Shown here: positions 21,018 to 39,094 of the stretch, piece after piece | Position numbering within the stretch: position 1 is the first letter of the stretch | Layout of the letters: each line of letters starts with the position of its first letter | Origin: Candidatus Latescibacterota bacterium | GTDB lineage: Bacteria > Latescibacterota > UBA2968 > UBA8231 | NCBI GenBank assembly: GCA_965204725.1 | Contig: OZ242005.1 | Coordinates: 2,656,001 to 2,720,000 of the forward strand | Reading direction: 5' to 3' | Length of the DNA: 64,000 nt | Notes under the pieces: generated by a model | What the model was told of the DNA's origin: nothing | The model's database searches: none | What the model saw: only the letters and a program-made list of their open reading frames with translations | Translations under genes and position numbers: made by a program

Positions 21018-24000
21018 GTTTTGGCCGCGATGATCTGGGCGACGAGGTCGTCGAGGCGGGTGCGGACTGCGGCCAACTCGGCGGGTGTAAAGCGCACGAG
21101 ATGCTCCTCGTCTGTGTCAACAAAGTACAGGGTAGCGCGGTATTCGTCTTGGCCCGGGTAAAGACCCTGTAAGCAGAGGGCGTACATTTCCAATTGTAGT
21201 TGGTAGCGTTGCACTGACTCGGCTCGATTCGTGCGGTGGCCGGTTTTGTAGTCAACCAATTCCCACAACCCATCGGCCCCGCGTCCCATGTAATCAACCA
21301 CTCCATGTACCAACCCACGCGCTAGCGATAACGTAAAGCGCACTTCGGTCTGGGCCTCCGCTTGGGCGAGCCAGCGCGCGGCCAAGGGCGATTGACGGCA
21401 GCGGCGCAGCAGGACCGCCAACTCGCTCTCAAACGAAGCGCGATAGGATGCTACGGGCAAAGCAGCGGCCGCGACGAGGTCGGCCGCGAGATCGGCGGGA
21501 TCGGCATCCGGGCGGTTGCACAGGGCTTCTAAGCCGGCGTGGGCAAGCTGACCAAAGAGCATACCGCGGTGACGGGGCGCATCGACTTGGCCGAGGGGCC
21601 ACACCGGCAGGCCCAGCACATACTGGCGATGGTGCGCGGCCCGGTCCGCGGCAAAGAGGACCAACTCACTCGCGGCAAATTCGGGCCGGTCTTGGAGATC
21701 GTCGAGCGGCGACAGTAGGTCGAACTCTGGCGCGGGTGCTTGCACAGGCGCGGCGTCGAGGGCGCGAAAGGCCGGCTCGGCCACAGCGGTCGTCGCCGGG
21801 GCCGGAAACGCACTGGGATCGGTGTAGATGGGCAAGGGGGCTGGTACGCCGGCAACCTCCTTGGTGCCGCGAGCGAGATCGGCCTCGGTCAGGCCCAAGC
21901 TCCCACAAATCCAGCCGAGGCAGTCCACAGCCGTGCTGAGGTCGGCGGGGAGGTGCTTGTCGGTAAGCGCACCGCCGAGCAACAGGTGATCGCGGGCGCG
22001 GGTGCAAGCCACGTACAACAGGCGCTTCTCTTCGGCGTGCTGGCGGCGACGTGCGTTGCGGTTGATGAGGGCGCGGATATAGGATTGGACCGTTTTGTAA
22101 TCCTGCTCGGGGTCGCGCGTACTCAAGCCGATGCCCTTTTCCGCGTCGAGGAGGACAGGGTCGCTGCTTCCCAAGTTAAATCGCGCGGCCAAGTCGGGGA
22201 CTACGACGATGGGAAACTCCAAGCCCTTGGCCGCATGTACGGTTAGGATGTGCAAGGCGTCCGCCTCGAGGAGGGCCTCGCCCTCTTGTTCTTCTTCGGC
22301 CGTCAACAAATCGAGCCGAACCACGAAATCGGCGAGGGGACCGCGGAAGTCGCGGGCGAGGTCGAGGAGCTTTTCGACGTTGGCGATGGCCTGCTCTCCG
22401 CGCTCGCCATAGCAGAGAAAGCCCCAAGCCCCGGTGTCTTCGAGGACGGCGTGTAGAAGCTCGACGAGGGGCACACGGTCGCGCAACCCTCGCCAAGACT
22501 GGATCCGAGCGACCGCGTCCGCAGCGGCCTCTCGATCCGCCGGGGCGAGACGCTGCCGCCAGTCGGCGTCCTCTAGGTGCTCGGCCAGCCGCCCGCCACT
22601 GGGCGCGGTCAGCGCGTACAGGGCGTTGTCCGAGAGGCCAAAGTACGGCGAGCGCAACGCGCCCATCAGGGCGATGCTGTCGCCGGGGTTGCACAGGACG
22701 CGGAGGATATTGGCTAGATCGTAGATTTCCTGACGCTGGTAAAAGCCCCGGCCGCCGGCCACTTGGAAGGGGATGCCGCAGGCGCGCAGCGCGTCTTCAT
22801 ACGCGAAGAGGTTGCGGCGTCGGCGCAAAAGCAAGGCGATGTCCTTGGGCTCCGGTCGCCGCAAGTCCTCTCCGTCGGCGACCTGCAAATCGTCGCCCTC
22901 CAACAGGTGGCTCAGGCGGCGGGCCACGAGCTCGGCTTCGCGCCGCGCGGCTTCTGCTGAGTCGCGGCTATCCTCGGGCGGCAAGAGCAACAACTCGACC
23001 GAACCCGCGCTTACACTGCTGGAGCGGCACCCGACGAGCGGGTCGTAGCCGACCTGAAAAGGCTCGTCCGGGACCGCCTGCATGAACTTGGGAAAGAGCG
23101 CGTTGACAAAGGCAATGGGCTGGGCAAGAGTGCGAAAATTTTCGCCCATGACGAGGGCTCCGCGTCGCTGGGTAGGTGAGGCGTCGAGGACCTCGCCGTC
23201 GTCGCAAAAGGGCCGGGCATCGCGCTCGTGCGCGGCATTGGCCTCTTCAATGGCCTCGCGAACGCGGGCGAAGACCGTGACGTCGGCCGCGCGGAACGAG
23301 TAAATCGACTGCTTGGGATCGCCGACAATGAATAGCTTGTCGCCAGCCATTGGCCCGTCGGGCGACGCCAGCGAGCGGATGATTTCCCACTGCACGGGAT
23401 CGGTGTCTTGGAATTCGTCGATCAGCGCGAAACGATAGTGTTGGGCCAAGCGGTGGCGAATATCCGCGTCCGTAGCGATGAGTTGCTGGCTTTTCTCTAG
23501 GAGATCGTCCATGTCCAGCATCCGGCCGTTGCCCTTGCCGCGCTCACAGCGCTCATCGGCGCGGAGGAAGAGGCGCGACAGGGCGGGTAGCACGGCCGCG
23601 ACGCGCTCGTCGGCCGCCCCAAGTTCGCAGCCGAGGAGATCGGCGTGGGGCGCGAGGCAGCACCCCAAGGCGGGCACGAGTTCGCGCACCCGGGCCAGCG
23701 CGTCCGCGTCCCAATTGGATTTCTTGCCCAGTCGGCCGCCGCTCAAGGGCCTGCCATTAGTCAAAAGCCCCTCGGCGAGGCGCGGGAGGATCGCGACCGC
23801 CTCATCGAGCGGGGGCGTTTGGCTTAGCCGGCGCATGGGATCGCGGAGCGGAGCCAACCGCTCGACAGCCGAGTCGCGCTCATCGGTTCGGGGCGCGAGC
23901 GCGGCAAGCTCCGCGAGCATCGCAATAAAGTGAGGGTCGTCCAACAAGGCGTGACACGCGGGCGCACAGGCCGCTTGCTGCATCGCACGCCAGTCGCCGA

Positions 24001-24613
24001 GAATTTGGTCGGGCGATTGCTCAACGTAGCGGCGGCACCACGAGCGGGCGAGGTGCTTTTGCGCGAGCAGGCGTTGCAAGACCTGCTCGAGATAGCGACG
24101 CGGCCATTCGGCCAAGGTGCGCCGCAGGGCCGCTTTATCTTGGTCGGAGTCTTGCGTCCGGGCCAAGGACTCTAGGGTTTGGCGCACCGCTTGAGACCTA
24201 AGCTGCGCAGCATCTACTTCCTCCAAGACTGCAAAGGCCGGGTCCACATCCGCTTCAATGGGGTACTCGCGCAACAGCGCGGCACAAAAGGCGTGAATGG
24301 TGGAAATGCGGGCGGCAGGCAACTCTTCGCGAATTTGCCGCAAGCGCTGCCTTTCTGGTTCGGACAACGCTTGGGCGAGCCCGTCGGACAGCCGCTGGGC
24401 GATGCGCTCGCGCATTTCCGCCGCGGCCTTTTGGGTAAAGGTAATGGCCAGCACTTGGCGCACGCCGATGTCGGGATGTTGGAGCAATAGCTCGATATAG
24501 CGCTCGACGAGCGTTGCGGTCTTGCCAGCACCGGCACTAGCGGTGACCGCGATATTGCGCTGACTGTCGAGGGCCATGCGCTGGACTGGCGTCAGGGGGA
24601 CAGCGCGCTTCAC
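21014..24613 (-). CDS. addA: AddA-like UvrD helicase/RecB-type nuclease
   Basis: ASAGAGKT, ITFTQKAAAEM, DEFQDT, VGDPKQSIYSFR, TVHAAKGLEF, LYVACTRA, VVD...VDYKTG. The GTG start overlaps the addB stop (GTGA). Confidence 0.9.
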   Translation of the reverse strand: MKRAVPLTPVQRMALDSQRNIAVTASAGAGKTATLVERYIELLLQHPDIGVRQVLAITFTQKAAAEMRERIAQRLSDGLAQALSEPERQRLRQIREELPAARISTIHAFCAALLREYPIEADVDPAFAVLEEVDAAQLRSQAVRQTLESLARTQDSDQDKAALRRTLAEWPRRYLEQVLQRLLAQKHLARSWCRRYVEQSPDQILGDWRAMQQAACAPACHALLDDPHFIAMLAELAALAPRTDERDSAVERLAPLRDPMRRLSQTPPLDEAVAILPRLAEGLLTNGRPLSGGRLGKKSNWDADALARVRELVPALGCCLAPHADLLGCELGAADERVAAVLPALSRLFLRADERCERGKGNGRMLDMDDLLEKSQQLIATDADIRHRLAQHYRFALIDEFQDTDPVQWEIIRSLASPDGPMAGDKLFIVGDPKQSIYSFRAADVTVFARVREAIEEANAAHERDARPFCDDGEVLDASPTQRRGALVMGENFRTLAQPIAFVNALFPKFMQAVPDEPFQVGYDPLVGCRSSSVSAGSVELLLLPPEDSRDSAEAARREAELVARRLSHLLEGDDLQVADGEDLRRPEPKDIALLLRRRRNLFAYEDALRACGIPFQVAGGRGFYQRQEIYDLANILRVLCNPGDSIALMGALRSPYFGLSDNALYALTAPSGGRLAEHLEDADWRQRLAPADREAAADAVARIQSWRGLRDRVPLVELLHAVLEDTGAWGFLCYGERGEQAIANVEKLLDLARDFRGPLADFVVRLDLLTAEEEQEGEALLEADALHILTVHAAKGLEFPIVVVPDLAARFNLGSSDPVLLDAEKGIGLSTRDPEQDYKTVQSYIRALINRNARRRQHAEEKRLLYVACTRARDHLLLGGALTDKHLPADLSTAVDCLGWICGSLGLTEADLARGTKEVAGVPAPLPIYTDPSAFPAPATTAVAEPAFRALDAAPVQAPAPEFDLLSPLDDLQDRPEFAASELVLFAADRAAHHRQYVLGLPVWPLGQVDAPRHRGMLFGQLAHAGLEALCNRPDADPADLAADLVAAAALPVASYRASFESELAVLLRRCRQSPLAARWLAQAEAQTEVRFTLSLARGLVHGVVDYMGRGADGLWELVDYKTGHRTNRAESVQRYQLQLEMYALCLQGLYPGQDEYRATLYFVDTDEEHLVRFTPAELAAVRTRLDDLVAQIIAAKT

Positions 24614-27600
24614 GATTGCAAGGCCCGCACGCGCTGGGGGTCGAGGCGGCAGCTTTGTTGATAGGGGCAGTGCGGACAAATTTTGGCCGGATCGTGGGCG
24701 GTGACGCGAAATACCCCTCGGCGCATGGATCGGGCGTACGAAAGGACGAAGCCGCGCACGGCGTCGAGCCGCTGGCGATACTCCTCGGAGTCGTAAATGC
24801 CGTGGCGACCGCTGGCGACATAGGCTGTATTGCGGTGGGCGGCATCGGCGAACAGCCCCCTGCGGCCACAGTCCGCTAGGTCGCGGAGCATCAGGTACGC
24901 CGCCCCGGCCCCTTGTCGCAGCCCGAGCTCCCCGAACAGGGATTCAGCCGCTAGCAAGTAGAGCGGGAGTTGGAGGTTGAGGCCGGTGTCAATATCGGCC
25001 CCAGCGGGCATGCGGCCGGTTTTGTAGTCAAAGACGACGAAGCGGCCATCGGCCGTGCGGTCAATGCGGTCGATCTTGCCGGACAGGCGCACCTCATCGC
25101 CAGTCTCTGGATCGCCGATCGCATAGGGCGTGGGGGTCGATCTCCGGTCGCTGTCTCCTATGCCGGGATAGCTGCCAAAGCTCAGCTCAAAATGGGTCGG
25201 CACGGCTGGGTCGGCCCCGGCCGCTTGCAGCCGGAGGAAGCGGGGCAAAATGCCCTCGCGCTCCCCGTCGTCGCCGAGCAGGTGCTCTAATTCCCGATCC
25301 CAGAAAAAGCCGGTAAGCCTCATCTCCTCGGCGACTTGGCGGCCACAGTCACGCAACTCCGCGACGTTGGTCGCCAAGTTTTCCGGGCGTTCAGCCGCTT
25401 CGCCGTGGGCGTTATAGAAATCGTAGAGGATGCGGTGGACGAGGTTGCCGCGCTTGAGCGCGGTGTCGTCGGCTTCCGGGTCGTGGAGAGGCTGGAGCCC
25501 GAGCAGGTCGCGGGCGAAAAACCGGAAGGGGCAGCGGCCGTACAGCTCCAGTTGGGTCGCGGAGAAGGAGTGGCCCACGCCGAGGCGGGTGCGCAGCGCG
25601 GCGAGCTGAGACGCCTCGTCGAGTACGCCTTCGTACCGACTGAACCCCTCGGGACTGGTGCGCTGTGCGGCGACCTGCAAGCCGCGCACGAGATGCGCGG
25701 TGGCGTGGGCGTCGACCCGCACCATTGCGCCGTACAGAGCGAGGGCGTCATGATCGCGCTCCGCGCACAGGCCGCGGCCCAAGGCGCGGTGCAACTCGCC
25801 TCGGGTGCCCGGCATCCTACCGGCATCGTCCGCCGCAGGCTGCGGCCCGAGCAGGTCATCTAGCTCGGTGATAAAAGGCGAGGGAGCGAGCACCTCGCGG
25901 CCCGACTGCTGGGGATAGAAGACGCTGAGGCCGCGGCGCGGCGCACACACGGCGCGGTAAAACAGCAAGCGCTCGGCCGCGGTGGTCGCGTCCTCGTCCA
26001 AACTCAGGGCGCGACGCTGAGCCTCTTCGAGAAAAATATCGGCCGGCGGTACGCGGGGAAATTCGCCCTGCACCAGCCCGCCTAAGAAGAGGTAATCGCA
26101 GGGCGCACTGCCCGCCGCAACGAGGTCGGTCACTTGAATGCCAGCGTGCGTTGCGGAAGGGACGTGCGCTTGGGCGACGGCCTCGCGCAGCAGGTCGGCG
26201 AACTGGCTCAGGGTGCGGGGCTGCTCGGCCGCGGCCGGCGCACACAGTTCGTCGAGCAGCTCCAAAAAGCGCGTTAGGGCGCGGCCGTCTTCTGTCGCCC
26301 CCTCCGCGAGGGCATCCTCTACGCCCAACGCGCTGAGGGCGTGGAGCATGTTATGGCGGAAGGAGGGCAGGGCTTGGCGGCGCTCCAAGGGCTGGAGCAG
26401 GTCAAAGAGCGCGGTCAGGCTGGCTCGGAGAGGCTGGAGGGCCTCCTGCTCGGCGCGCAGGGACTCGTGCCAAGCGGCGCGATCGTCGATTTCTTCGGAG
26501 ACAGGTTCGTCTTTGCGCTCGAGTTCGCGCTCTAAGTAGGCGAAGGTGTCGTCAATGGCTGCGAGCCACGCGCCGCGCCCGGTCAGTGGGGGAACTTTGC
26601 GGGTCCACGCGGCGAAGTCCGCGGCCGAAAGCGTGTTCGTCTGACCTTCAAATGCGTAGCTCAGGCGCACCAAGGGCAAGCTGAGTAGGCGGAAGATCGC
26701 GGCGCGGCTGTAGCGCTCTAGCACTGCGTCGATGAGCGCAAAGACCGTGTTCATGGCCGGTGCGGTGGCAAGGGGCCGACCGCGCACGAGGTAAAAAGGC
26801 AGGCCGTGACGCGGCAGCACTTCTGCCACGAGCTCGGCATAGGAGTCGAGGTTGCGGAAGCCGATGCGGATCTGGCCGAGCTCGACCCCTTGCTCTTGAT
26901 GCAACCGACGAATACGGCGGGCCATCGCCGCAACTTCCCCGACTCGGTCGGGGCAGGCCACCCGCTCTACGGCTGCGGCGCAATGGTCGCGGCTATGCGT
27001 GAAGAGGCTACCGGCAAACGCGGCGGCCGGATGCTGCTCACCCGCGCTGGATTCGACGCGGACAGCGCGGGCGCGGAGCCATTCGTACAACGGGCGCGTG
27101 CGGGCAAAAAAGCTAGGCCCCTCCGGGTCGTAGTCGAGCAAGGCGATGGATTCTGGAACGAGGGCGAGCAGCTTGTCTAGCAAGGGCAAAAAAGGGGCGG
27201 GCACTTCTACAAACCCGCTGAACACGAGCAATTTGAGGCCGGGAAAACGCTGGTCGAGCACCGAGCGGTCGAGGTGGCTATTCACGGCGGCAAAACGCGC
27301 CCGCCGCCCGCTCCAGCCCGCCGCGAGCCGCGCTAGATACGCCTCATACAGGGCCTGCAATTCCGCGCTGCGCCGAGTGGTCCCTCCTAGATCACTCGGC
27401 TCGATGCCCAATTCCTCCAGCCGACGGAACAGTTGAGCCAGCCCCCGGGCCAGCCGCTCGGGTCGGCGGCTGTAATAGGGCGCACTGGCCGCGCTGGCCG
27501 CGAGCGCGTCTTCGACTAAGAGCACCTCGGCACTCAGGGGCAGGGCCGCTCGCCGGCCGGGACAGAGGCTGTAGAGGATGTCGATGAAAGCGTTTAGATC

Positions 27601-27801
27601 GAGGGCCAAGTACCCGGTGAGTAGGCCAGTGGAACGGGCGCGGGCGAGTTGCCGCCGCATGAGTTGGGCTTGGAAGCGCGATGGAACGAGCCAGAGAAAG
27701 GCCCGGCTATCGCCAGCACTGAGCAACGCCGAGCAGCACTCGGACGCAGGCGATGCCTTGTCGGGATGGGCCGGGCCGTAGATGAGGTTCAATTCGCCCA
27801 T
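24610..27801 (-). CDS. addB: AddB-like PD-(D/E)XK nuclease with Fe-S cluster
   Basis: SATQLELYGRCPF, GKIDRID, DYKTG, QLPLY, CPHCPYQQSC; coupled to addA. Confidence 0.85.
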   Translation of the reverse strand: MGELNLIYGPAHPDKASPASECCSALLSAGDSRAFLWLVPSRFQAQLMRRQLARARSTGLLTGYLALDLNAFIDILYSLCPGRRAALPLSAEVLLVEDALAASAASAPYYSRRPERLARGLAQLFRRLEELGIEPSDLGGTTRRSAELQALYEAYLARLAAGWSGRRARFAAVNSHLDRSVLDQRFPGLKLLVFSGFVEVPAPFLPLLDKLLALVPESIALLDYDPEGPSFFARTRPLYEWLRARAVRVESSAGEQHPAAAFAGSLFTHSRDHCAAAVERVACPDRVGEVAAMARRIRRLHQEQGVELGQIRIGFRNLDSYAELVAEVLPRHGLPFYLVRGRPLATAPAMNTVFALIDAVLERYSRAAIFRLLSLPLVRLSYAFEGQTNTLSAADFAAWTRKVPPLTGRGAWLAAIDDTFAYLERELERKDEPVSEEIDDRAAWHESLRAEQEALQPLRASLTALFDLLQPLERRQALPSFRHNMLHALSALGVEDALAEGATEDGRALTRFLELLDELCAPAAAEQPRTLSQFADLLREAVAQAHVPSATHAGIQVTDLVAAGSAPCDYLFLGGLVQGEFPRVPPADIFLEEAQRRALSLDEDATTAAERLLFYRAVCAPRRGLSVFYPQQSGREVLAPSPFITELDDLLGPQPAADDAGRMPGTRGELHRALGRGLCAERDHDALALYGAMVRVDAHATAHLVRGLQVAAQRTSPEGFSRYEGVLDEASQLAALRTRLGVGHSFSATQLELYGRCPFRFFARDLLGLQPLHDPEADDTALKRGNLVHRILYDFYNAHGEAAERPENLATNVAELRDCGRQVAEEMRLTGFFWDRELEHLLGDDGEREGILPRFLRLQAAGADPAVPTHFELSFGSYPGIGDSDRRSTPTPYAIGDPETGDEVRLSGKIDRIDRTADGRFVVFDYKTGRMPAGADIDTGLNLQLPLYLLAAESLFGELGLRQGAGAAYLMLRDLADCGRRGLFADAAHRNTAYVASGRHGIYDSEEYRQRLDAVRGFVLSYARSMRRGVFRVTAHDPAKICPHCPYQQSCRLDPQRVRALQS

Positions 27802-27948
27802 GAGCAGCAGGTTGGGGGTGAAATGGAGGGGCGCGTTGCCAACGTATCGCCCAAGAAAAACACTGTCAAGCCGCACGCTGCGCCGTGCGTTGACATAGAA
27901 CGGGGCAGGTCGCTTTTTATGCCCCGCGGCCTAGCCGCGCTTTTCTTA

Positions 27949-28088
27949 TAGAGGCGGTCTGAAAACCCACCTTGGGGCATGTTGAACAAGCCGCAGAGAC
28001 CGTCTGCGTCATTCCCGCGAAAGCGGGAATCCAGCCGGGATCGGTTAGACGCAAAGGACGACCACCAGAGTCTTCAGACCGCTTCTTA
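27949..28088. mobile_element. MITE (TIR GARGCNNTCTGAA), copy carrying a REP
   Basis: Inverted copy of 60649..60753 plus 36 extra nt (28001-28036). Confidence 0.8.
28008..28034 (+). repeat. dRS3-like REP GTCATTCCCGCGAAAGCGGGAATCCAG
   Basis: ATTCCC-N8-GGGAAT hairpin; exact inverse copy at 30761-30787. Confidence 0.85.
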
Positions 28089-28101
28089 GGTGGAATTCGC
28101 A

Positions 28102-29112
28102 ATGAAAAAATGGACTGCTGCCTTGCTCTTGTGGTGGAGTTGCGCCCCCCTGACCTCTCCGGCGGGCGGCCCGGAAGAATGGCAAAAACCCGAGCCACCG
28201 CCCCCACCGCCGAGCGCGTTAGAGCAATACCTGAAGGCGCGCCAGCACTATGGCCTCGGCCCTCGGCCCGACTTTGTGGCCGTGGTGCCCTTTGTCGATG
28301 AATCGGGGTTTCGCGAGGGCGTGTGGAACCTCGAATACGAACTGGCCAACATGGTCAGCGCGGAGCTAGCGCCCGTGCGGAATTGGGAGGTCGTCCCTTT
28401 TGACGCCGTGGCTGAGTTGGCCTTGGAGTGGGGGTTTGCCAGCCTTGAGAAAGCCCTCGCGATCGGGCGCGAGCTAGAGGCTGATTTCGTCGTCGTGGGC
28501 CTTTTGCAAGACTACGACATGCGCCGCCTGTCAGTGGGAGATCCCTTGTTGGGCGGATACAAATCCTATTCGGCCACGGCGCAGATGCGCGTCGAGATCG
28601 CACGGGTTGACGACGGCAGCGCGATCGGTCATGCCGAGGCCCAACGCGCACTCACCGACCGCGACTTGGGGCTCGACCTGTTGGGCAAGCCGCGCGAGCA
28701 GGACTTGCAGTTTGCCGGATTAAAGGAGCTAGCATTTGGCTCGGAGCCGTTCCGCCAAACCCTGTTGGGTCAAGCCACAGTAGAGGCCGTAGGCGAGTTG
28801 GTCCACAAGGTGGCTACGGCTTTCGAGCCGGAGGGCTTGGTGTTTACAGGCGATGCGCCCGAGGTCATCGCCGTATATAGCGAGGACATTTACGCCAATA
28901 TCGGCAGCGATCACGGCGTGCGGCCGCGATTGCGCTTTTTCGTCTATCCGAGCGACGCCCGGGTAGAGGCCGAGGGGCTGGCGTCCGCAGAGTCCGTCGC
29001 CCTCGTCGAAGTCGCCGAAATCATCAGCACCCGGCTCGCCAGCTTGCGGGTGCTCCGCGCCACCGGGACGATCAAGCCCGGCGACCGGCTCAAGTTGGCC
29101 GAAGGAGAATAG
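28102..29112 (+). CDS. Exported protein, CsgG/FlgT-like fold suspected
   Basis: Signal-like MKKWTAALLLWWSCAP; VAVVPFVD..., AIGRELEADFVVVG; C-terminal IYANIGSDHGV...IKPGD. Confidence 0.55.
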   Translation: MKKWTAALLLWWSCAPLTSPAGGPEEWQKPEPPPPPPSALEQYLKARQHYGLGPRPDFVAVVPFVDESGFREGVWNLEYELANMVSAELAPVRNWEVVPFDAVAELALEWGFASLEKALAIGRELEADFVVVGLLQDYDMRRLSVGDPLLGGYKSYSATAQMRVEIARVDDGSAIGHAEAQRALTDRDLGLDLLGKPREQDLQFAGLKELAFGSEPFRQTLLGQATVEAVGELVHKVATAFEPEGLVFTGDAPEVIAVYSEDIYANIGSDHGVRPRLRFFVYPSDARVEAEGLASAESVALVEVAEIISTRLASLRVLRATGTIKPGDRLKLAEGE

Positions 29113-29114
29113 CG

Positions 29115-30149
29115 ATGCAGGGAGTAGTCAAATACCAGCGGGGCGACGGATTTGTCGAGCTGCGCGACCTAGCCGACGCGCCGCCCAACCCCGAGCAGGT
29201 GAAGGTGGCGGTGCAGGCCACCGGCATTTGCGGGTCGGACCTACACGTGTACCGCGACACCATCAACTACAACATCCAAACCCCGGTCGTCATGGGACAC
29301 GAGTTTAGCGGGGTGGTGGTGGAAAAGGGCGCGGCTGTCGGCGATCACATCCAAGTGGGCGACCGCGTGACCGGCGAGCCGAGCGTGTATATCTGCGGCG
29401 CCTGCGACTACTGCTTGAGCGAGCACTACAACCTCTGCCCCGACCGCAAGGTCATGGGCTATTGGCACCACGGCTGCTTCGCCCCTTACTGCAATGCGAC
29501 CTTCGTCCACAAGCTGCCCGCCGGCGTGGGGTTTGAAGCCGGCGCCCTAACCGAGTTGTTAGCCTGTTGCGTGCATTCGGTCATTGAGCAGGCCGGCGTG
29601 ACCGCCGGGGACTTCGTCGCCATCACCGGGCCGGGGCCGGTGGGTTTGTTCGCGGCGCTGGTGGCGTTGGCCGAAGGGGGGACGGTGATTCTCTGCGGCA
29701 CGGAGCGGGATACCGAGCGGCTGCAACTCGCCGAAGAATTGGGCGTCCAGCACACGGTCGATATTGCGGCCCATGATCCGGTGGCGCGGGTGCGCGAGTT
29801 GACTAGCGGCTATGGGGCCGATGTGGTAGTCGAGTGCGCGGGGGTGGCCCCAGCGATGCAGTTGGCCCTCGAACTGGCGCGCAAGCGGGGGCGCTACTCT
29901 CAGATGGGGCTGCCGGGTGCGCCCGTAGCGATCGACTTCGAGAAGATCGCTTACAACGAGCTCCAAGTCTCCGGCGGCATTGGCCAGCGGCGACCGGCTT
30001 GGCAGCGGGCGTTGCGGCTGATGGAACGGGGCTTTATTCCCAGCGAAAAGCTGATCACCCACCACTTTGCCCTGCGCGAATGGCAGCGGGCCTTTGACAT
30101 GGCCGAGGGGCAAGAGGGGATCAAGCTAATGTTCATGCCGCAGGACTGA
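29115..30149 (+). CDS. Zn-dependent MDR alcohol/polyol dehydrogenase
   Basis: GICGSDLH, GHEFSG, CGACDYC...C, GPGPVG. Confidence 0.93.
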   Translation: MQGVVKYQRGDGFVELRDLADAPPNPEQVKVAVQATGICGSDLHVYRDTINYNIQTPVVMGHEFSGVVVEKGAAVGDHIQVGDRVTGEPSVYICGACDYCLSEHYNLCPDRKVMGYWHHGCFAPYCNATFVHKLPAGVGFEAGALTELLACCVHSVIEQAGVTAGDFVAITGPGPVGLFAALVALAEGGTVILCGTERDTERLQLAEELGVQHTVDIAAHDPVARVRELTSGYGADVVVECAGVAPAMQLALELARKRGRYSQMGLPGAPVAIDFEKIAYNELQVSGGIGQRRPAWQRALRLMERGFIPSEKLITHHFALREWQRAFDMAEGQEGIKLMFMPQD

Positions 30150-30237: not shown

Positions 30238-30693
30238 ATGCGTTCGATTTATAAACTCTGGCGTAAACTGCGCGATAAAGCGTACCGAGACGGCTACACG
30301 GAATCTCAGCTCTCCATTGAGGTGCCCTTTCAGATCCGAGCAATCCGCAAAGCACGCGGCTGGACGCAAGCCCAACTCGCCAAGCGGAGCGGCATTCCGC
30401 AAGCGCGGATATCCCACATTGAACAGGCCGGCCGGGATCCGCTGTCGTTGCGGACGTTGTACCGATTGGCAGCCGCTTTTGACGTGGGCTTGCAGGTACA
30501 GTTTGTCTCGTTCAGCGAGTTGGTACGGCGGGAAGCGGCCTTTGATCCCGAGACGTTTCGCGTCCCTAGCTTTGCAGAGGACCATATAGAGCGGGCCGTA
30601 CCAACTAGTGATATATCGGTGCCAAAGGAGCCTTACACGACCAACTCCAAGCGCACGCCCAAGGTACGCGGCAGAATGGCCCAATCTGAATGA
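30238..30693 (+). CDS. XRE/HigA-like HTH regulator (no toxin neighbour)
   Basis: QIRAIRKARGWTQAQLAKRSGIPQARISHIEQ...LRTLYRLAAAFD. Confidence 0.85.
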   Translation: MRSIYKLWRKLRDKAYRDGYTESQLSIEVPFQIRAIRKARGWTQAQLAKRSGIPQARISHIEQAGRDPLSLRTLYRLAAAFDVGLQVQFVSFSELVRREAAFDPETFRVPSFAEDHIERAVPTSDISVPKEPYTTNSKRTPKVRGRMAQSE

Positions 30694-30911: not shown

Positions 30912-32888
30912 TTGACTGAATTTTTTGAACAGCCTGTCCTCAACTCGCCCTACGAGCGTCCGAGTCGGCATTGGGAACTAGACGAGACCGGGCAGCCGAC
31001 CCAGCAGATCGTCGAAAGCCGCCGGGCAGCCGAGTTCATCACGCCGATTCCTCAGCCTAAGAAGCGCGAGGGAACATCCACCCAACAGGCCGCGCTGGTG
31101 TTTGACGAGGCGGCGCGAAAGCTCGAAGACGCCGGCCAGCAATACCTCGATCCGCTTAGCCTGCCGGTGGAGTTACAAACCGCGCTGGAGGCTCTGTACG
31201 GACATTACCAGAAAACCTTTGAGTTGATGGAAGAGGCGGGCATTGGCGTACCGCCGTGCTTTATTGTGGTCTGCAACAATACCGCGACCTCCAAGCTGGT
31301 GCATGACTACATCGCTGGCTTTCACCGCGAGAACGACGATGGCTCAACCACGTTGGTAAATGGCCGCCTAGAACTATTTCGCAACTTTGACGACCACGGC
31401 GACCAGTACCTGCCGCCGCGCACGCTGTTGATCGACAGCGAGCAGTTGGAGTCGGGCGACGCGCTGGACAAAAACTTCCGCGACGTGGCCGCCGACGAGA
31501 TCGACCGCTTTCGGCGGGAAATCATCAAGCGCACCGGCGACCGTCGTCAGGCCGACAACATCAGCGATCAAGCGCTGCTCCGCGAGGTTATGAACACCGT
31601 GGGCAAACCGGGGCGGCTGGGGGCTTCGATTCGCTGCGTAGTGTCCGTGTCCATGCTCACCGAAGGCTGGGATGCGAATACGGTCAGCCACGTGTTGGGC
31701 GTGCGCGCTTTTGGGACGCAGCTACTCTGCGAGCAGGTCGTTGGCCGAGCACTGCGCCGGCAGTCCTACGATCTCAACGAAGACGGCCTGTTCGACGTCG
31801 AGTACGCCGATGTCTTGGGCATCCCATTCGACTTTACGGCCAAGCCCGTGGTGGCCCCGCCCAAGCCGCTGCGCGAGACCGTTCAGGTGCGGGCCGTGCG
31901 ACCCGAGCGCGACGCGCTGGAAATTCGTTTCCCGCGGGTGGCCGGGTATCGAGTGGAATTGCCGGCAGAGCGGCTCCGCGCCGAGTTCAACGAGGACTCA
32001 GTGCTGGAACTGACGCCCGATCTGGTCGGCCCGTCGATCACGCGGAACGAGGGGATCATCGGCGAGGGCGTGGACCTCAACTTGGTACATACCAAAAACC
32101 TGCGGCGTCCGACCCTGCGTTTTCACCTGACTCAGCGGCTGCTCTATGAAAAGTTCCGCGATCCGGGCGAAGAGCCTAAGCTCTATCTCTTCGGCCAACT
32201 CAAGCGCATCACCAAACAGTGGCTCGACACCTGCCTCGTCTGCAAGGGCAGCACCTATCCGGCCCAACTCATGTATCAAGAACTGGCCGACATGGCCTGC
32301 GAGCGCATCTTTGCCGCCATCATGCGCGAGGAGATTGACCGTCGGCCAGTCAAAGCCGTGCTCGATCCGTACAACCCCATCGGCTCAACTGCCCACGTCC
32401 ATTTCAACACGACCAAGACCCGCCGTTGGCAGACCGACGCTCGCCGTTGCCCCATCAACTACGTCGTCCTCAACAGCGACTGGGAAGCCGAGTTTTGTCG
32501 CGTAGTCGAATCTCATCCTCGCGTCAAAGCGTACGTCAAAAACCACAATCTCGGCTTGGAGGTCCCCTACCGCTCCGGCTCGCAACCGCGGACGTACCGG
32601 CCAGACTTTATCGTCCTGATCGACGATGGAAACGGCGATGACCTTTTGCATCTAATCGTCGAGATCAAGGGCTTTCGGCGGGAGGACGCCAAGGACAAGA
32701 AGGCGACTATGGACACCTATTGGGTGCCCGGGGTGAATCATCACGGGGACTGCGGCCGCTGGGCTTTTGCCGAGTTTGCGGATGTGTACGAGATGGAAGC
32801 CGCGTTTAATCAGTTGGTTGAGGGGGAGGCCACAAAAGGCACAAAAGGCACAAAAGGCACAAAAGGGATGAGACATGAGGAGTGGTAA
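30912..32888 (+). pseudogene. res: Type III restriction enzyme Res subunit (BPTD_3080-like) with in-frame deletion of the N-terminal ATPase domain
   Basis: Family N-terminus PVLNSPYERPSRHWELD, then motifs V/VI (SMLTEGWDA, EQVVGRALRR) and nuclease PDF...VEIKG. No Walker A or DEAH motif in 658 aa. Confidence 0.8.
32831..32866 (+). repeat. 9-bp tandem repeat CACAAAAGG x4
   Basis: Seen directly at the 3' end of res (TKG repeats). Confidence 0.9.
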
Positions 32889-34639
32889 TGCTTTGGGATA
32901 GTGATCGCTTGTTGCAGCAACTTGAGCTCGGGGAGGACAGCCGCGTTGAGTTTAAGGAAGCCGTGTTTAGCGGCAACCGCGTCCGCGCACCGAATCGGGA
33001 CGCCATCGCCGACGAGTTGGCCGCTTTTGGCAACACTATCGGCGGCACCTTGATCTTCAGCGTGTCCGATGCCGGTGAAGTGCGGTTGATGAGCCGACAA
33101 CACATAGACGCGCTTGAAGCCTTTGTTAGCGAGATTTGCTCGGATAGCATCCGTCCCCCGTTGGCGTTTGTCACCCAACGGCTGGCGCTGCCCAATGGTT
33201 CGTTTGTGCTGATCGTCACCGTCGAACAGAGCGCATTGGTCCACAAGAGTCCCGGGGGCTACCTTTCTCGACGAGGCAGCACCAAGCGAGAGATGTCACC
33301 GGAGGCATTGAACCGTTTGTTTCAGCAGCGGGGGCGTTTTGGCCTGCTCGGCCCGGACGAAGGGATCGTGGCCGGCACCGGGGCCAATACGTTTGACGAG
33401 ACCCTAGCGGATCGTTTCCTGAGTTCGCGCACTACCGAGCCTACCACAGTCCAACTCACAAAGCTGGGGTTGGTGCGGGAGGATGACAGCGGCGTGCTCC
33501 GCGCAACGGTTGCCGGGGTACTGCTTTGCACTACGCGCCCGGATGAGTACCTACGCGGCGCGACGATTGAAGCGGTTCGCTATCGCGGCACGGTGTCGGG
33601 CCGGGCGAGCCAGCACGATGCAGCGTCCATCACCGGCCCGTTGGACCAGCAGATCCGCGCTGCCGTCAACTTCGCTAGGCTCAATACGCGGGTCGCGGCG
33701 CGCAAGGCCCCTGGGCGAATAGAGACTCCGCAGTTTAGTCCGCGCGCCCTGTTTGAGGCCATCGTCAACGCCGTGGTTCACCGCGATTACTCAATAAAAA
33801 AGGAGAGGATACGGCTCTTCATTTTTGACGACCGCTTCGAGTTGTACTCGCCGGGTGCCCTGCCCAACACGCTGCCCATTGAGGCCATGCGGAATCGACA
33901 AGCCACCCGCAACGAAACGCTCGCGTCCATTCTCCGCATGCTCGCGGTCGGGGATATTGCCGGTGCGGGGGACCGGCAGTACTTCTTGGAGCAACGCGGC
34001 GAAGGGGTTCCGGTCATCTACGAGCAGACCCGGGCGCTGACAGGACGCGACCCAGAGTATGAACTGCTCGGCGGCACGGAACTACGGCTGACTATACCGT
34101 CCGCCCGTCCGCCGGTCCCGGGCATCCAAGGGGAAGTGTCGGTATCTGCCGCTGGTCAGCCGCTTGCCGGCGCACGGGTCGTTGCGCTGTATCCCAACAA
34201 GACTTGGATGGAGGAGGAAACCGATACGTTTGGCCGGGTCGCTTTTGGGTTCCACTCGGAGCTTCCCATCACTGTTTTCTGCGCGGCACCGGGGTATGGT
34301 GCTCACGTGGAGCGGGATTGGCACCCACCGGCACCGCTCGCCGTGCAGCTTGAGCCGCTGCCTAGGGGTGGGTCAGCCGTGTTCACCGAGGGCGTCGGTC
34401 ATTTGCCCAATTTGACCGGGCGGCTCAACCCCATTCTCGACGATCTCGACCGCATGTACCTTTATGCGACAAACGTCGCCATTGACGAAGGCAGGCAGCA
34501 ACCCGTTCACTTCAAACTGAACCAGCCCTTGCGGCTTACGGATGTCAACGGGATTGAATGGATCGTGCGGTTCGTTGAGATGATCGGAACGTCGGCGCTG
34601 TTGGAATACGAATTCCCAAGGCCGAAAAAACAGCGATGA
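32888..34639 (+). CDS. Schlafen/AlbA_2 domain + HATPase_c_4-like domain + beta-rich C-terminal domain
   Basis: GEDSRVEFKE, AFGNTIGG, EAIVNAVVHRDY, SPGALP, RN..LA, EQRGEG; the ATG overlaps the res stop. Confidence 0.85.
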   Translation: MLWDSDRLLQQLELGEDSRVEFKEAVFSGNRVRAPNRDAIADELAAFGNTIGGTLIFSVSDAGEVRLMSRQHIDALEAFVSEICSDSIRPPLAFVTQRLALPNGSFVLIVTVEQSALVHKSPGGYLSRRGSTKREMSPEALNRLFQQRGRFGLLGPDEGIVAGTGANTFDETLADRFLSSRTTEPTTVQLTKLGLVREDDSGVLRATVAGVLLCTTRPDEYLRGATIEAVRYRGTVSGRASQHDAASITGPLDQQIRAAVNFARLNTRVAARKAPGRIETPQFSPRALFEAIVNAVVHRDYSIKKERIRLFIFDDRFELYSPGALPNTLPIEAMRNRQATRNETLASILRMLAVGDIAGAGDRQYFLEQRGEGVPVIYEQTRALTGRDPEYELLGGTELRLTIPSARPPVPGIQGEVSVSAAGQPLAGARVVALYPNKTWMEEETDTFGRVAFGFHSELPITVFCAAPGYGAHVERDWHPPAPLAVQLEPLPRGGSAVFTEGVGHLPNLTGRLNPILDDLDRMYLYATNVAIDEGRQQPVHFKLNQPLRLTDVNGIEWIVRFVEMIGTSALLEYEFPRPKKQR

Positions 34640-35055: not shown

Positions 35056-35304
35056 ATGAAGACGACCATTGACATCCACGACGAATTGCTGGCTCAAGCG
35101 AAGCAGTACGCGAGAAACACCGGGCGCTCGTTGTGTGCCGTAGTGGAAGAGGGCCTGCGTCAAGTGCTTCCCACACCTTTTTCCAGCAGCCGCTACCGTC
35201 TGCCCGACCTGAGCGAGGGCCAGACGGGCGCGGCCGATCCATTGGCAGCGTACTCATGGCAGGAGTTGCGCGGGATAATCTACGGAGAACCGGAGGAGCA
35301 GTGA
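35056..35304 (+). CDS. vapB: VapB-type RHH antitoxin
   Basis: MKTTIDIHDELLAQAKQYA...VVEEGLR; stop overlaps the PIN gene start. Confidence 0.85.
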   Translation: MKTTIDIHDELLAQAKQYARNTGRSLCAVVEEGLRQVLPTPFSSSRYRLPDLSEGQTGAADPLAAYSWQELRGIIYGEPEEQ

Positions 35305-35753
35305 TCGCCATTGATACGAATCTGCTGGTCTATGCCCACCGTCGGGAATCTCAGGTACACGGAGTAGCTTTCGAGGTGCTGCGGACGCTTGCCGAGGGAG
35401 ACTCAGCATGGGCGATTCCTTGGCCCTGCTGCTACGAATTCCTGAGTGTTGTAACTAACCACCGGATTTGGAAGGATCGCACTACGTCGCCGGAACGGGC
35501 TTGGCAACAACTCGACGCTTGGACCGCGTCGCCTTCAAATCGCCTCATCGGCGAGACCAGTGACTTTCGGGCTATATTGAAGAGCTTTGTCTGTCGCCCC
35601 GGAGTGAGTGGGGGCGTCATACACGATGCTCGGGTTGCTGCCATTTGCATTGCTCACGGCATCGAAGTACTGCTCACCCGAGATCGCGACTTCTCATTGT
35701 TCCCAGAGTTGAAAACACGCAATCCGTTTGAGCCATCAGTAGGCAGTGGTTAA
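35301..35753 (+). CDS. vapC: VapC PIN-domain ribonuclease toxin
   Basis: GTG start; IAIDTNLLVYAHR, YEFLSVVT, HDARVAA, TRDRDF. Confidence 0.9.
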   Translation: MIAIDTNLLVYAHRRESQVHGVAFEVLRTLAEGDSAWAIPWPCCYEFLSVVTNHRIWKDRTTSPERAWQQLDAWTASPSNRLIGETSDFRAILKSFVCRPGVSGGVIHDARVAAICIAHGIEVLLTRDRDFSLFPELKTRNPFEPSVGSG

Positions 35754-35842: not shown

Positions 35843-36781
35843 ATGGCGAAACGAAAATTGACCAAGACGGTCGAAACTCTGCGGCATCAAGATGCGACGC
35901 GGAAGAACATTCCTACGGCTGAGTATCAGGCGGTGATGGCGGATGATGACCGGAATCCGATCCGCGTCGCATACCAGCGGCGCAACCGCGATCTCGATCC
36001 GCAGCTTGTTTGGCGCGGTAAGGACGAGCAGAATGGGGCGGACTTGGTGGTGCAAAGGCCGCCGCTGTTCATTCAGGAGAAGGGTGCATCCCAAGGTGCT
36101 GATTGACGACTTGCGGCAGCAGAGCAAGGAGGGCGAGGGGGAGCAGACCGACCTGTTCGCGGATTTCAACGGGCTGCCGAGCGCGGACGCTCAGACCGAG
36201 TTTTACCAGCACGACGCCAACTGGTCGAACCGCATGATTCTCGGCGATAGCTTGCAGGTGATGGCGTCGCTGGCCGAGCGCGAGGGGCTGCGCGGCAAGG
36301 TGCAGTGCATCTACATCGACCCGCCCTACGGCATCAAGTTCAACTCGAACTTTCAGTGGTCAACCACCAGCCGCGACGTGAAGGATGGCAGGGCCGAGCA
36401 CATTACGCGGGAGCCGGAACAGGTCAAGGCGTTTCGGGATACGTGGCGCGACGGGATACATTCGTATCTGACGTATCTGTGGGATCGGCTGACGGCGGCG
36501 CGGGATTTGTTGACCGAAAGCGGGTCGGTGTTTGTGCAGATTGGGGACGAGAACATGAGCCGAGTGCGGGTATTGATGGACGAGATATTTGGAGAGAGCA
36601 ACTTTGTTGCTCTTATTTCATATGCAAAGACTACTGGATTCTCTGGCACTTATCTATCGCAGGTTTGTGACTACTTGATATGGTATTCCAAATCACTGTC
36701 GGACCTCAAGTACCGTTCACTTTTCGATACCAAGGAGCAAGGTGCCGCGGGTGCTTCCAAGTACCGGGCCGCCTCGTCAAT
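35843..36781 (+). pseudogene. mod: Type III Mod adenine methyltransferase, frameshifted (~36083) and cut by IS630
   Basis: DLDPQLVWRGKD, NRMILGDSL, YIDPPYG, FVQIGDEN. An extra G in gagaagGgtgcat breaks EKVHPK. No FxGxG motif before the IS end. Confidence 0.88.
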
Positions 36782-37871
36782 TATTGACCTCTGCATTTTT
36801 AATGGAATAGTTTATATTCATTTCTATGCGACCTAAAGGTAGTGCCGATCGGCTAGAGTATCGCCGTCAGTGGGCGGCTCAGTTGCTGGATGAAGGGCGA
36901 GGCGTCAACGAAGTAGCTCGTCTGGTTCGAGCGTCTCCCTCCTCGGTGTCTCGCTGGAAGGCGATGAAAGCGCACGCCGGCGAGGAGGGGCTCAAAGCCA
37001 AACCACATCCGGGGCGGGGCTGTCGGTTGAGTGGCCCAGATAAGGAGCAGTTGAAGCAACTGCTGCTGGCGGGTCCCCAGGCGGCGGGCTTTGATACCGC
37101 GCTGTGGACGTGTCGGCGAGTCGCGCAGGTGATTGCCCACACGTTTGGGGTGTCCTATCATCCCGATCACGTGGGTCGTCTGCTACATGGGTTGGGTTTT
37201 TCGTGCCCGTATCCCCAGCACCAAGCGCGGGAACGCGATGAGGAGGCCATCCGCCAATGGCGCTTAGTGGAATGGCCACGGATTAAAAAAAAGCCCGGCA
37301 CCAAGGGATGACCCTCGTCTGGATCGATCCGAGCGGCTTCCTGCTGCAACCCACCCGGCGGAGGACGTGGGCTTTGGCGGGGCACACGCCGATACACAAG
37401 GTGTGGAGCCGCCACGATCGCGTGTCGGTTCAAGCCGCCGTTACCCTGCCGCCTCAACGCCAGCGGTTGGGCGTTTATTTCCGGATGTATGAGCAGAATA
37501 TCCATACGCAGGATGGGGTCTCCTTTGTCGGGTATATGATGAGCATGATACGACGTAAGATTGTGCTCATTTTGGATCGATGGAGTGTGCATCGCGCGGC
37601 GGTGGCGATCCGACAGAAACGGTACGCCGATCGACTCACCATCGAATGGTTACCCGCCTATGCACCCGAATTGAATCCGGTCGAACAGGTCTGGAATCAT
37701 ACCAAGTACGGGGACTTGGCTAACTTCAGGCCAGAACACATCGACCACCTCGCAGACGCGGTCACGATGTCGATGACCGCCCAGCATCACGATACCCCCC
37801 TGATCCGAGGCTTCTTCAAGTATGCACAACGTACCCTGTAAAGAAGTCCTTTAGTTTTGCAGAACTCAATA
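36782..37871 (+). mobile_element. IS630-family insertion sequence, apparently complete
   Basis: Ends TATTGACCTCTGCA / TGCAGAACTCAATA with TA at both ends; two-ORF transposase. Confidence 0.9.
36826..37841 (+). CDS. IS630 transposase (ORFs 36826-37311 and 37308-37841 joined by -1 frameshift)
   Basis: HTH and winged-HTH N-part; slippery A8G at 37285-37293; DDE motifs WIDPSGF, ILDRWSVH, PELNPVEQVW. Confidence 0.9.
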
Positions 37872-38210
37872 ATAAGCATGGTGCGGCTCCTGTGTTTAGG
37901 ATTTAGATGCAATCTTGGGCGATTACAAATAAACCTAAAACAGGGCCGTACCACAACTTAGATCAAGTGAGATTACTGTCGTGTACTAAGGGTACGCTGT
38001 ATGCGATTAGCCCCTTATACACCACAAGAAAATCCCGTCGAAGATATTTGGTTAAAAGGGAAAACCTTTGTGCGTACTCATGCGTTGTGGACCACAAGCT
38101 TTGAACAGATCAAAGACCTATTTGTCGAGGGCATTCGACAGAAAAAATACTTCCATTTTCCTAAGTTACAGCAATATATAACATCTCTTAAATGATGTAG
38201 AATTGCTATA
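37872..38210 (+). mobile_element. 3' remnant of a second, different IS630 element
   Basis: LAPYTPQENPVEDIWLKGK...FPKL at 38001-38195; AT-rich; right end ATGTAGAATTGCTATA. Confidence 0.8.
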
Positions 38211-39094
38211 TAACTGTCCTCAAGTTTACTCTGAAGAAATGCATCAAATAAACAGATTACCGCCAAGCTTTGGGTCCCTTCGCCATGTCGGCCAATAGGC
38301 AGATGCGCACCAGTGGTTGAGGTGATCATAACTTGTGTTCGGGACAGGATGTCGAAGACTTTGCTGGGAATAGCCTCGATACTTATCGGATCGTTCCTAT
38401 CGAGAGAAACCATTTTGCCGGTATTTCCGAGTCGCTCTTTGATCGCGCCAAACGATTCGTGGGAGTCTAAAATCTTTTGGTTCAGTGCCGCTAGCTCTTC
38501 TTCAAGTTTCTGCCTCAAATCAGGATCGATATTCAGAGAGCGAACAAACGGTCCCCAAAATTGGGAGCGAGGCCGAAATTCCTGAGCAGAGTCGCGCAGT
38601 GCTGCCAAATAGAAAACGGGAGCGAGTTGCTGCAACGAGAATATATATCGCGGATCTTTAGCATTTGTTAGTGCATTGCCAGCGAGATCTAAAAAATCCC
38701 AAACTGTAACAAAATCGTCTGTTGCGGCGGCGTATTTACTTCGCACACGGATTATCACGCTTTGCCGCTCATTTTCATCGGTCTGAACAGCGACGGCGAA
38801 CCTTTGAGGCACTTCATCTGGCCACTCGTTCTCAGTTTGTTCAGCGAAATACAGAGTGATTTCTATGGCATCACTGTCTGCTGGCTGGCTTTCCTTTTGC
38901 GGTAAGTGATAATCATATTCTGAAAATATACCGCCCTTTCGAGTGAGCGAACGACTCAAACAAACTTGGAGTGCTTCCAATATTGTCGATTTCCCGGTGT
39001 TATTTTCGCCTATTAGGACGGTAGTTTTATCTAGCTTCATACTTAGATTGCGGATTCCTCGGAAATTCGCAATATCGATCTTTTCTAAGAACAT
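38211..39094 (-). pseudogene. OLD/GajA/YbjD-like ABC-ATPase nuclease, truncated by IS630 before Walker B and TOPRIM
   Basis: IANFRGI, IGENNTGKSTIL, YLAALRD, signature-like HGEGTQSL. The frame runs into the IS end at TATA, so no EEPE motif. Confidence 0.85.

Follow-up and report, generated by a model that had tools for sequence, protein, structure and literature searches.

A Schlafen-GHKL protein with a two-domain β-rich tail, a predicted sensor-switch-effector, in a decayed restriction-modification island of a Latescibacterota bacterium

We analysed a stretch of 64,000 nucleotides from a Candidatus Latescibacterota bacterium (assembly GCA_965204725.1, contig OZ242005.1, positions 2,656,001 to 2,720,000 of the forward strand), here called the window, and within it a gene whose 583-amino acid (aa) product joins a Schlafen-type nuclease domain, a GHKL ATPase and a tail of two β-domains. 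A preliminary description made from the letters alone had proposed a new anti-phage sensor-effector with an intact E...EFK motif, a HATPase_c_4-like core and a β-rich tail in place of the usual winged helix-turn-helix (wHTH). The open reading frame (ORF), the motif and the core are all upheld, and the gene and its parts, in window coordinates, are as follows:

32888..34639, plus strand: intact 583-aa gene for a protein with Schlafen, GHKL and immunoglobulin-like (Ig-like)/permuted-FHA (pFHA)-like tail (ORF and translation, Pfam, homologues, ratio of non-synonymous to synonymous substitution rates, dN/dS)
32877..32882, plus strand: Shine-Dalgarno-like GAGGAG, 5-nt spacer to the ATG at 32888 (read from the sequence)
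32933..33298, plus strand: Schlafen/AlbA_2 nuclease domain, aa 16-137 (Pfam PF04326, E 3e-13)
32933-32956, plus strand: catalytic E16-x4-E21-x-K23 (motif in the translation)
33740..34099, plus strand: GHKL (Bergerat-fold) ATPase region, aa ~285-404 (Pfam PF13749 HATPase_c_4 at aa 307-402, E 4.7e-16)
34112..34369, plus strand: transthyretin-like/CarboxypepD_reg-type β-sandwich, aa 409-494 (AlphaFold2, VIA, Foldseek, weak Pfam match)
34370..34612, plus strand: second β-domain, aa 495-575, FHA/HmuY-like at best (AlphaFold2 of the domain alone, VIA, alignment A1)

The Schlafen match runs the full length of its profile (SLFN_AlbA_2, positions 1-118 of 118; 50.8 bits against a cut-off of 25.3), and E16-D-S-R-V-E21-F-K23 fits the motif Ex4(E/D)xK as worded in a survey of bacterial Schlafens (PMC13056530, Nat Microbiol 2026). 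The N-box of the GHKL region, FEAIVNAVVHRDY, begins at aa 289 and reads F289-E-A-I-V-N294, that is E290-x3-N294. This is the spacing of E314 and N318 in RzAgo, an equivalence made by motif spacing without an alignment, and in the account given of RzAgo these two residues bind Mg-ATP (10.64898/2026.05.29.728809). The same preprint names the Schlafen-GHKL unit 'Schlatpase', places it on 58.6% of prokaryotic Schlafen proteins, and reports ATP-dependent tetramerisation, tRNA cleavage and phage defence for that of RzAgo. With PF04326 followed by PF13749 in one polypeptide the window protein has the Schlatpase order, and it shares the Schlafen-linker-GHKL arrangement, Ex4ExK and an E-x3-N N-box with the N-terminus of RzAgo, with pSlfn1 and pSlfn2 of PMC13056530 and with structure 3lmm. 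It differs from them in its end, where a β-module stands and a helix-turn-helix (HTH) is absent; in RzAgo the sensor is the Argonaute core, and Schlatpase tails, per a figure legend of the preprint, are HTH in >90% of cases, followed by TPR and Ig-like. A long PADLOC pAgo model (PDLC02394) matches the window protein at aa 173-393, through its Schlafen-GHKL part only, and an NCBIfam scan returned no family for the whole 583-aa protein. Among solved structures 3lmm_A comes closest in sequence; this uncharacterised protein of 583 aa aligns only over aa 37-414 (E 5.1e-8), and as the alignment stops at aa 414, the last ~170 residues of the window protein differ. These residues are all-β where a wHTH is usual, and linker plus GHKL (~270 aa, from the Pfam boundaries) separate them from the Schlafen domain.

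The preliminary description had read the tail as a transthyretin-like sandwich plus a second β-domain, and the structure prediction and Foldseek search that it proposed agree with this. Modelled with AlphaFold2 on a 50-row alignment of diverse matches (A1), the 179-aa tail forms a two-domain all-β structure (pLDDT 96.4, pTM 0.89). Its first half superimposes on the transthyretin-like domain of carboxypeptidase D (5aq0_B) with VIA Z 8.2 and a root-mean-square deviation (rmsd) of 1.4 over 76 aa, also on 8qox_B (Z 8.0), and matched 9hfj in Foldseek at E 8.7e-4. CarboxypepD_reg (PF13620) reaches 21.3 bits at aa 413-476 (E 3.5e-4), short of its Pfam threshold of 32.3 bits. When the tail profile was run against PDB sequences, the matches were weak and Ig-like (3e8v, E 0.0013; invasin, E 0.0036), none over the second domain. 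In the ESM Atlas the top scores were 0.86, to unnamed clusters, one of which carries CarboxypepD_reg on 31% of its members, which is a lead only. A homodimer prediction from two copies of the tail and alignment A1 scored 0.00 with controls absent and has no bearing either way.

The second domain is less readily placed. Pfam gave no match to aa 480-583 at E ≤ 0.01; folded alone (aa ~489-583) the domain reached an AlphaFold2 pLDDT of 93.3, with no Foldseek match at E ≤ 1e-3. Its best VIA scores were HmuY-like (Z 6.5), and the N-terminal FHA domain of EssC scored Z 6.1 twice (5fwh_A, rmsd 3.3 over 78 aa; 1wv3_A, rmsd 3.4 over 80 aa). About 20 of the 50 VIA rows listed are FHA domains, many classical ones standing below the EssC entries. 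The VIA noise line lies at Z 7-8 and every score of this domain falls under it; no match reached Z ≥ 8, hence no fold is claimed, and an FHA-like assignment is a tentative one drawn from the model. The domain holds the best-conserved stretch of the tail, G511-R-L-N-P-I-x-D518...R522-x-Y-L-Y-A-x-N529 followed by Q-P, which is near-invariant in alignment A1, with R522 invariant in all 50 diverse proteins. A classical phospho-threonine-binding FHA domain was considered and dropped, because the match is weak and the conserved histidine is absent: the invariant and near-invariant columns of the 50-sequence tail alignment contain no His.

A bioRxiv preprint of October 2026 (10.64898/2026.10.19.760177) describes a pFHA domain that is structurally akin to the N-terminus of EssC, lacks the histidine of classical FHA domains and always stands after an Ig-like sandwich. 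There the Ig-like + pFHA module is predicted to sense peptides, and its effectors are given as the array of the START-domain systems (TIR and Schlafen included) with PIN RNase, a DUF4143-related restriction endonuclease and DOC. Compared by description only, the window tail and its relatives are alike in the obligate N-terminal sandwich, the lack of a conserved His and the TIR, Schlafen, STY-kinase, PIN and DUF4143 partners; the EssC-FHA likeness is compatible but weak (Z 6.1 against Z 6.5 for HmuY-like). The window protein differs in having a GHKL domain between effector and module, and the caspase, trypsin, HsdM and exported forms reported below are absent from section 35 of that preprint. 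The novelty claimed in the preliminary description is therefore lost, an Ig-like + pFHA sensor with Schlafen appearing in this preprint and Ig-like tails of Schlafen-GHKL proteins in 10.64898/2026.05.29.728809. Both architecture and module were already described as predictions in 2026 and the window gene adds a member. The combination of GHKL and Ig-like is found in 0 of the 55 compositions of supplementary file 21 of PMC13056530.

We searched 1.84 billion representative proteins with the 179-aa tail using phmmer and found the module on 536 representative protein clusters at E ≤ 1e-3, and on 366 at E ≤ 1e-10. Matches span both halves of the tail (query ~13-171) in most of the best 150 of these 536 proteins; the module is usually C-terminal, in proteins of 170-760 aa, and some carry 2-3 copies. 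Partner domains were assigned with Pfam in 113 of the best 150 matches, the other 37, mostly short fragments, being excluded:

Schlafen and/or GHKL: 23 of 113
TIR-type: 15 of 113
only extra Ig-like or CarboxypepD_reg domains: 11 of 113
AAA_14/DUF4143: 5 of 113
caspase: 3 of 113
protein kinase: 3 of 113
PIN_8: 2 of 113
Trypsin_2: 2 of 113
M48, N6_Mtase fragment (P0196), DUF7662 and dockerin: 1 of 113 each
no Pfam partner family: 45 of 113

Pfam found no DOC/Fic catalytic domain among the 113. In P0158 the module sits between GHKL and a Fic-like_C domain, a domain counted as HTH by the authors of PMC13056530, so the module can join an HTH as well as substitute for one. Metagenome loci added two further architectures, HsdM + GHKL + module (L076) and DUF4062 + GHKL + module (L106). 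The first of these (L076:5640-8552) is a 970-aa fusion of a full type I HsdM with GHKL and the β-module, the Schlafen domain being absent, and its neighbours are DUF4276 and a pair of TIR genes, of which one includes an AAA_21/AAA_15 ATPase. The list of other effectors joined to the module, which the preliminary description had called for, includes TIR, caspase, PIN, AAA_14/DUF4143, kinase, trypsin and HsdM-GHKL.

The gene itself is well conserved. The best 120 of 4093 matches are full-length homologues, 77-99% identical to the window protein, which makes the ORF real far beyond chance; in their source records they go by 'AAA family ATPase' or 'putative DNA binding domain-containing protein'. 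The 22 close loci in species-representative genomes are mostly from Latescibacterota, with others from Gemmatimonadota, Terriglobia and Bryobacterales. Within the phylum the module occurs in 57 of 168 genomes, and in 21 of 30 of the window's genus, at ≤3 matches per genome and nearly always inside frames of ~580-630 aa; the distribution is patchy and accessory. A single back-translated pattern, a weak test, found no relative in IMG/VR viral contigs. Across the window gene and 14 loci, dN/dS was 0.07-0.20 over the whole gene in the 13 of 14 pairs with unsaturated dS, and 0.06-0.27 by domain wherever dS was unsaturated, indicating purifying selection on every domain. Diversifying selection on the tail was likewise rejected at the domain level, tail dN/dS being 0.09-0.27 in the computable pairs. 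The N-box E and N are present in 121 of 121 orthologues and the complete catalytic motif in 107.

The preliminary description had the module sense a phage protein, and this part of its sensor-effector reading is not borne out: the module varies no more than the nuclease does, and its motif is near-invariant. Exported forms, conservation that is even across domains and a motif that hardly varies all fit better with a conserved ligand, perhaps small or a peptide, than with a fast-evolving phage protein. The rest of that reading stands in so far as the tail is shuffled among effectors and the homologues lie mostly in restriction-modification (R-M) or defence loci. The same conservation could be turned towards a different function, in which the tail is a constitutive scaffold for assembly or docking, is not a sensor, and control lies elsewhere, e.g. 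in ATP level or gene expression. The TIR, caspase, trypsin-like, kinase, PIN and Schlafen partners are enzymes that generally act as oligomers, and a motif near-invariant across partners and compartments, with uniform conservation among orthologues, is what a structural interface would show. However, the GHKL domain already provides ATP-driven oligomerisation in RzAgo (10.64898/2026.05.29.728809), the strand-hairpin motif, whose conserved residues are polar or aromatic (R, N, D, R, Y, Y, N), would suit a ligand site better than a hydrophobic contact surface, and the authors of 10.64898/2026.10.19.760177 take the module as ligand-binding; we regard a scaffold as quite unlikely.

The gene stands in an island that has lost much of its content, with the following features in the window:

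30238..30693, plus strand: HTH_3 (Xre-type) regulator upstream of res (Pfam; PADLOC control-protein-type matches)
30912..32888, plus strand: remnant of res, a BPTD_3080-family type III-like restriction endonuclease (NCBIfam NF046055; BLASTP against L005)
32831..32866, plus strand: perfect 9-bp x4 tandem repeat, CACAAAAGG, at the 3' end of the res remnant (TRF)
35133..35753, plus strand: PIN/VapC toxin ORF between the Schlafen gene and mod (Pfam PIN; TIGR00028, 75.8 bits against a cut-off of 73.6)
35943..36836, plus strand: fragment of mod, a type III methyltransferase (PADLOC PDLC03632, E 3.2e-106; partial Pfam N6_N4_Mtase)
36826..37841, plus strand: insertion sequence (IS) 630-like transposase ORFs, HTH_33 then DDE_3, terminating mod (Pfam)
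38078..39094, minus strand: gajA fragment, covering the N-terminal half of the ATPase of Gabija (PADLOC PDLC00094, profile positions 1-295 of 569, E 1.2e-118)

Compared by BLASTP with the intact protein of L005, the res remnant fuses residues 1-78 to ~444-1005, an in-frame loss of ~80-443 (~365 aa) from ~1015, and the missing stretch includes the ResIII ATPase lobe, which lies at aa 168-322 in the intact 1015-aa protein. The remnant covers positions 409-969 of the 970 of NF046055 at 756.6 bits, against a cut-off of 800. The mod fragment spans only positions 106-344 of 983 of its profile. The sequence indicates that res and mod are both dead in the window. No terminal inverted repeats were found for the IS630-like ORFs, and the element may be partial; there was no gajB among the window ORFs scanned, and the interval 35943-39094 looks like an IS-associated deletion that took parts of two defence systems. 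The Schlafen gene is the sole large defence gene still intact in the island. The HTH_3 regulator is also present in some relatives, with synteny in L002, L003 and L018. The 9-bp x4 repeat, which is read through by the res frame, lies ~20 nt ahead of the Schlafen start and had no counterpart in the 59 other loci compared, might change frame or expression at the res-Schlafen junction.

The proposed translational coupling to res stands in part. The Schlafen ATG does overlap the upstream stop as TAATG, but that stop belongs to a dead res remnant, and in relatives the two genes are spaced apart or in reverse order. With its neighbours wrecked (res lacking ~365 aa, mod cut at the IS630-like ORFs and gajA halved), and with Schlafen copies apparently damaged in 3 of the 22 relatives (L002, L012, L015), the gene could be a leftover of a decaying island in which disabling mutations are yet to come. 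This would sit poorly with an open frame, all motifs intact, a good ribosome-binding site and dN/dS of 0.07-0.20 where computable, and with a second intact paralogue retained in the same genome, and we think it highly improbable.

Gene order was then compared across the close homologue loci. A BPTD_3080-family type III-like res lies within 10 kb of the homologue in 18 of the 22. Among L001-L019 and the window there are two gene orders, each confined to a single strand: 12 loci read Schlafen-res-...-mod, whereas six loci and the window read HTH-res-Schlafen-...-mod. Ahead of mod lies variable small cargo that includes VapC/PIN, HTH-Peptidase_M78 and nucleotidyltransferase genes. The mod genes of L005 and L018 are intact, at 818-946 aa. 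Similar or larger internal losses in res are seen in L008, L011 and L016, so res decays again and again while the Schlafen gene stays whole. The island mostly follows addAB and two further genes, one hypothetical and one for an alcohol dehydrogenase, and this left flank, conserved in most relatives, marks a stable integration hotspot; in the window it occupies 21014-30149 and comprises addA-addB (AddAB-type helicase-nuclease), a 340-aa gene without a family and a zinc alcohol dehydrogenase gene. Elsewhere in the same genome a 49%-identical 579-aa paralogue lies in a type I R-M island (L031, G000:C1:636500-656400), beside HsdR, DUF4365, an HsdS fragment fused to DUF559, a nucleotidyltransferase pair and DUF1828/DUF1829, with a separate 874-aa N6_Mtase gene also present. 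In L138 a TIR + module gene is lodged among type I R-M genes, and in L133 a small protein with the module is encoded beside a type ISP enzyme.

PrrC/EcoprrI and RloC are anticodon nucleases encoded in R-M loci, and PrrC is held latent on EcoprrI; PrrC consists of a HEPN nuclease and an ABC-type ATPase, the Schlafen, GHKL and β-module all being absent. Among anticodon nucleases PrrC was the first, according to PMC13056530. The window gene, predicted to encode a tRNA-directed nuclease, resembles these in standing amid R-M genes as a back-up defence, and by analogy contact with an R-M enzyme through GHKL and tail might silence the protein until a phage anti-restriction factor disables that enzyme or the DNA ends left by restriction release it. 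The trigger would then be the condition of the R-M system, with no phage component bound directly. Repeated lodging in R-M loci, be they type III-like (18 of 22), type I (the paralogue and L138) or type ISP (as neighbour in L133), is in keeping with such a guard, as are the fusion of GHKL + module to HsdM and that of the module to an N6_Mtase fragment. So is the association discussed in PMC13462974, where R-M and other nucleases accompany more than half of the Schlafens linked to defence, and sensing of DNA-cleavage products is speculated upon. The same paper ties ATPase-bearing Schlafens to R-M (cluster 7). However, in the window the gene stays whole and purifying selection acts on it although res and mod are dead, and the same is true of four loci without R-M; the solitary and R-M-dead loci argue against R-M dependence in its strict form. 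In addition, three unrelated R-M types would require one shared docking surface, and the module is also carried by exported proteins. We therefore consider a PrrC-like guard unlikely.

Two other systems also join a Schlafen effector to a sensor. RorSlfn5 pairs a Schlafen effector with a C-terminal β-sandwich input domain; as described in PMC13056530, its Ig-like tail senses the T5 tail assembly chaperone, defence against T5 is by tRNA cleavage, and domain swaps show that the β-sandwich sets trigger specificity. It differs in its size (382 aa), in the absence of GHKL, and in a tail assigned by the authors' DPAM to ECOD 11.1.1, compared with the transthyretin-like and second domains of the window protein. 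The pSlfn5 group, in which Ig-like directly follows Schlafen with no GHKL, does not take in the window protein, which the Pfam-first scheme of that study would place in pSlfn1. In Cash (CRISPR-associated Schlafen, PMC13462974) a Schlafen tRNase is similarly released by a ligand on a fused sensor, which in that case is a Rossmann-like domain, Csx15, that binds cA4. The window genes annotated by Pfam and PADLOC include neither a cyclase nor CRISPR genes.

Taking these observations together, the reading that we favour, with moderate confidence, is that the window protein is a Schlafen tRNase with a GHKL ATP switch and an Ig-like/pFHA-like ligand input, carried with R-M and not dependent on it. 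One polypeptide, belonging to the Schlafen defence class of prokaryotes, would thus unite sensor, switch and effector. The effector would be its N-terminal Schlafen domain, a putative tRNA/RNA endonuclease. By analogy with RzAgo, binding of ATP to the GHKL switch would drive oligomerisation and build the active Schlafen nuclease cleft. The two-domain tail would be the input, binding a conserved infection-associated ligand, perhaps a peptide or protein segment. Ligand binding would free the nuclease, translation would stop in the infected cell, and phage defence is the predicted outcome. What the analysis shows directly are the domains, motifs, modelled fold, shuffling of the module, selection and gene contexts, whereas RNase activity, ATP-driven assembly, ligand sensing and phage defence are predicted from relatives. 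The gene probably moves with R-M loci as a second line of defence and could act without them. Strict dependence on R-M is disfavoured by the intact state of the gene, and the purifying selection on it, beside dead res and mod and in the four R-M-free loci.

Several observations weigh against this reading. In PMC13056530 two Schlafen-GHKL proteins were assayed in E. coli with 12 phages, and neither was protective. Most of the 18 R-M-linked loci represent one inherited island at a single chromosomal site and are non-independent, and four of the 22 loci (L017, L020, L022, L023) have only metabolic or transport neighbours, without R-M. Identity to the window protein is 80% in the Schlafen domain, 85% in the linker, 87% in GHKL, 82% in the sandwich and 85% in the second domain, so that the tail is no more variable than the nuclease (82-85% against 80%), unlike the case of the T5 sensor; pSlfn5 sensors are described as diverging faster than their nuclease (PMC13056530), and the window tail does not. 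A simple hydropathy scan flagged signal-peptide-like or membrane segments in 36 of the 150 best module matches, among them a receptor-type Ser/Thr kinase whose membrane span separates the kinase domain from the module, trypsin-like and caspase-like proteins with N-terminal signals, and the dockerin protein. These forms indicate that the module acts outside the cytoplasm too and is not specific to intracellular phage sensing. Finally, 14 of 121 orthologues lack the complete catalytic motif (e.g. GNSRVNLK) and keep N-box and tail motif, which implies that the nuclease is not always needed and suggests a nuclease-independent role in some lineages.

As side observations to these points, the exported or membrane module proteins include P0125, P0126, P0204, P0262 and P0147, and the motif-deficient homologues are P0081, P0098, P0100, P0106, P0123, P0103, P0109, P0121 and six others. 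In L020 (8640-13134) a lone 71%-identical homologue lies between the solute-binding-protein and permease genes of an ABC transporter, resembling an operon insertion.

The orthologues without a full nuclease motif, all of which retain the ATPase N-box and tail, would also suit a non-immune role, that of a nucleic-acid-binding ATPase with a regulatory or housekeeping function, e.g. control of R-M expression, as was once proposed for AlbA_2-HATPase 'putative DNA-binding' proteins. The source names of the homologues and the solitary position of some loci point the same way, as does the figure of 30.4% given in PMC13056530 for prokaryotic Schlafen genes that are not near defence genes. Against this, the full catalytic motif is present in the window protein and in 107 of 121 orthologues, the wHTH that would serve DNA-specific regulation is absent from the window protein, and the same tail is carried by TIR, caspase and PIN death effectors. 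A non-immune role thus seems improbable.

A more speculative extension, which we judge equally improbable, would have GHKL + tail as a portable 'R-M guard' cassette that reads failed or attacked restriction, through an anti-restriction peptide or the state of an R-M enzyme. If so, the signal would be passed to the fused effector, a Schlafen tRNase here, TIR elsewhere and even HsdM, and the cassette would be a general retaliation layer of R-M, with PrrC its first isolated example.

Bacterial Schlafens protect against phages, and of the 55 architectures catalogued in PMC13056530 the commonest, at 34%, is Schlafen with 'His_Kinase_A'. Schlafen nucleases connect bacterial with human antiviral immunity, and in 2026 those of bacteria were shown to act in defence through swappable sensor domains. 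Schlafen + GHKL is the commonest bacterial form, and the window family provides a clean, strongly conserved case with a defined, predicted ligand-binding module. As the module is common to TIR, caspase and PIN death effectors, the finding of one ligand would explain many systems. The lodging of the gene with R-M, and its survival after R-M decay, bear on the organisation of back-up defences.

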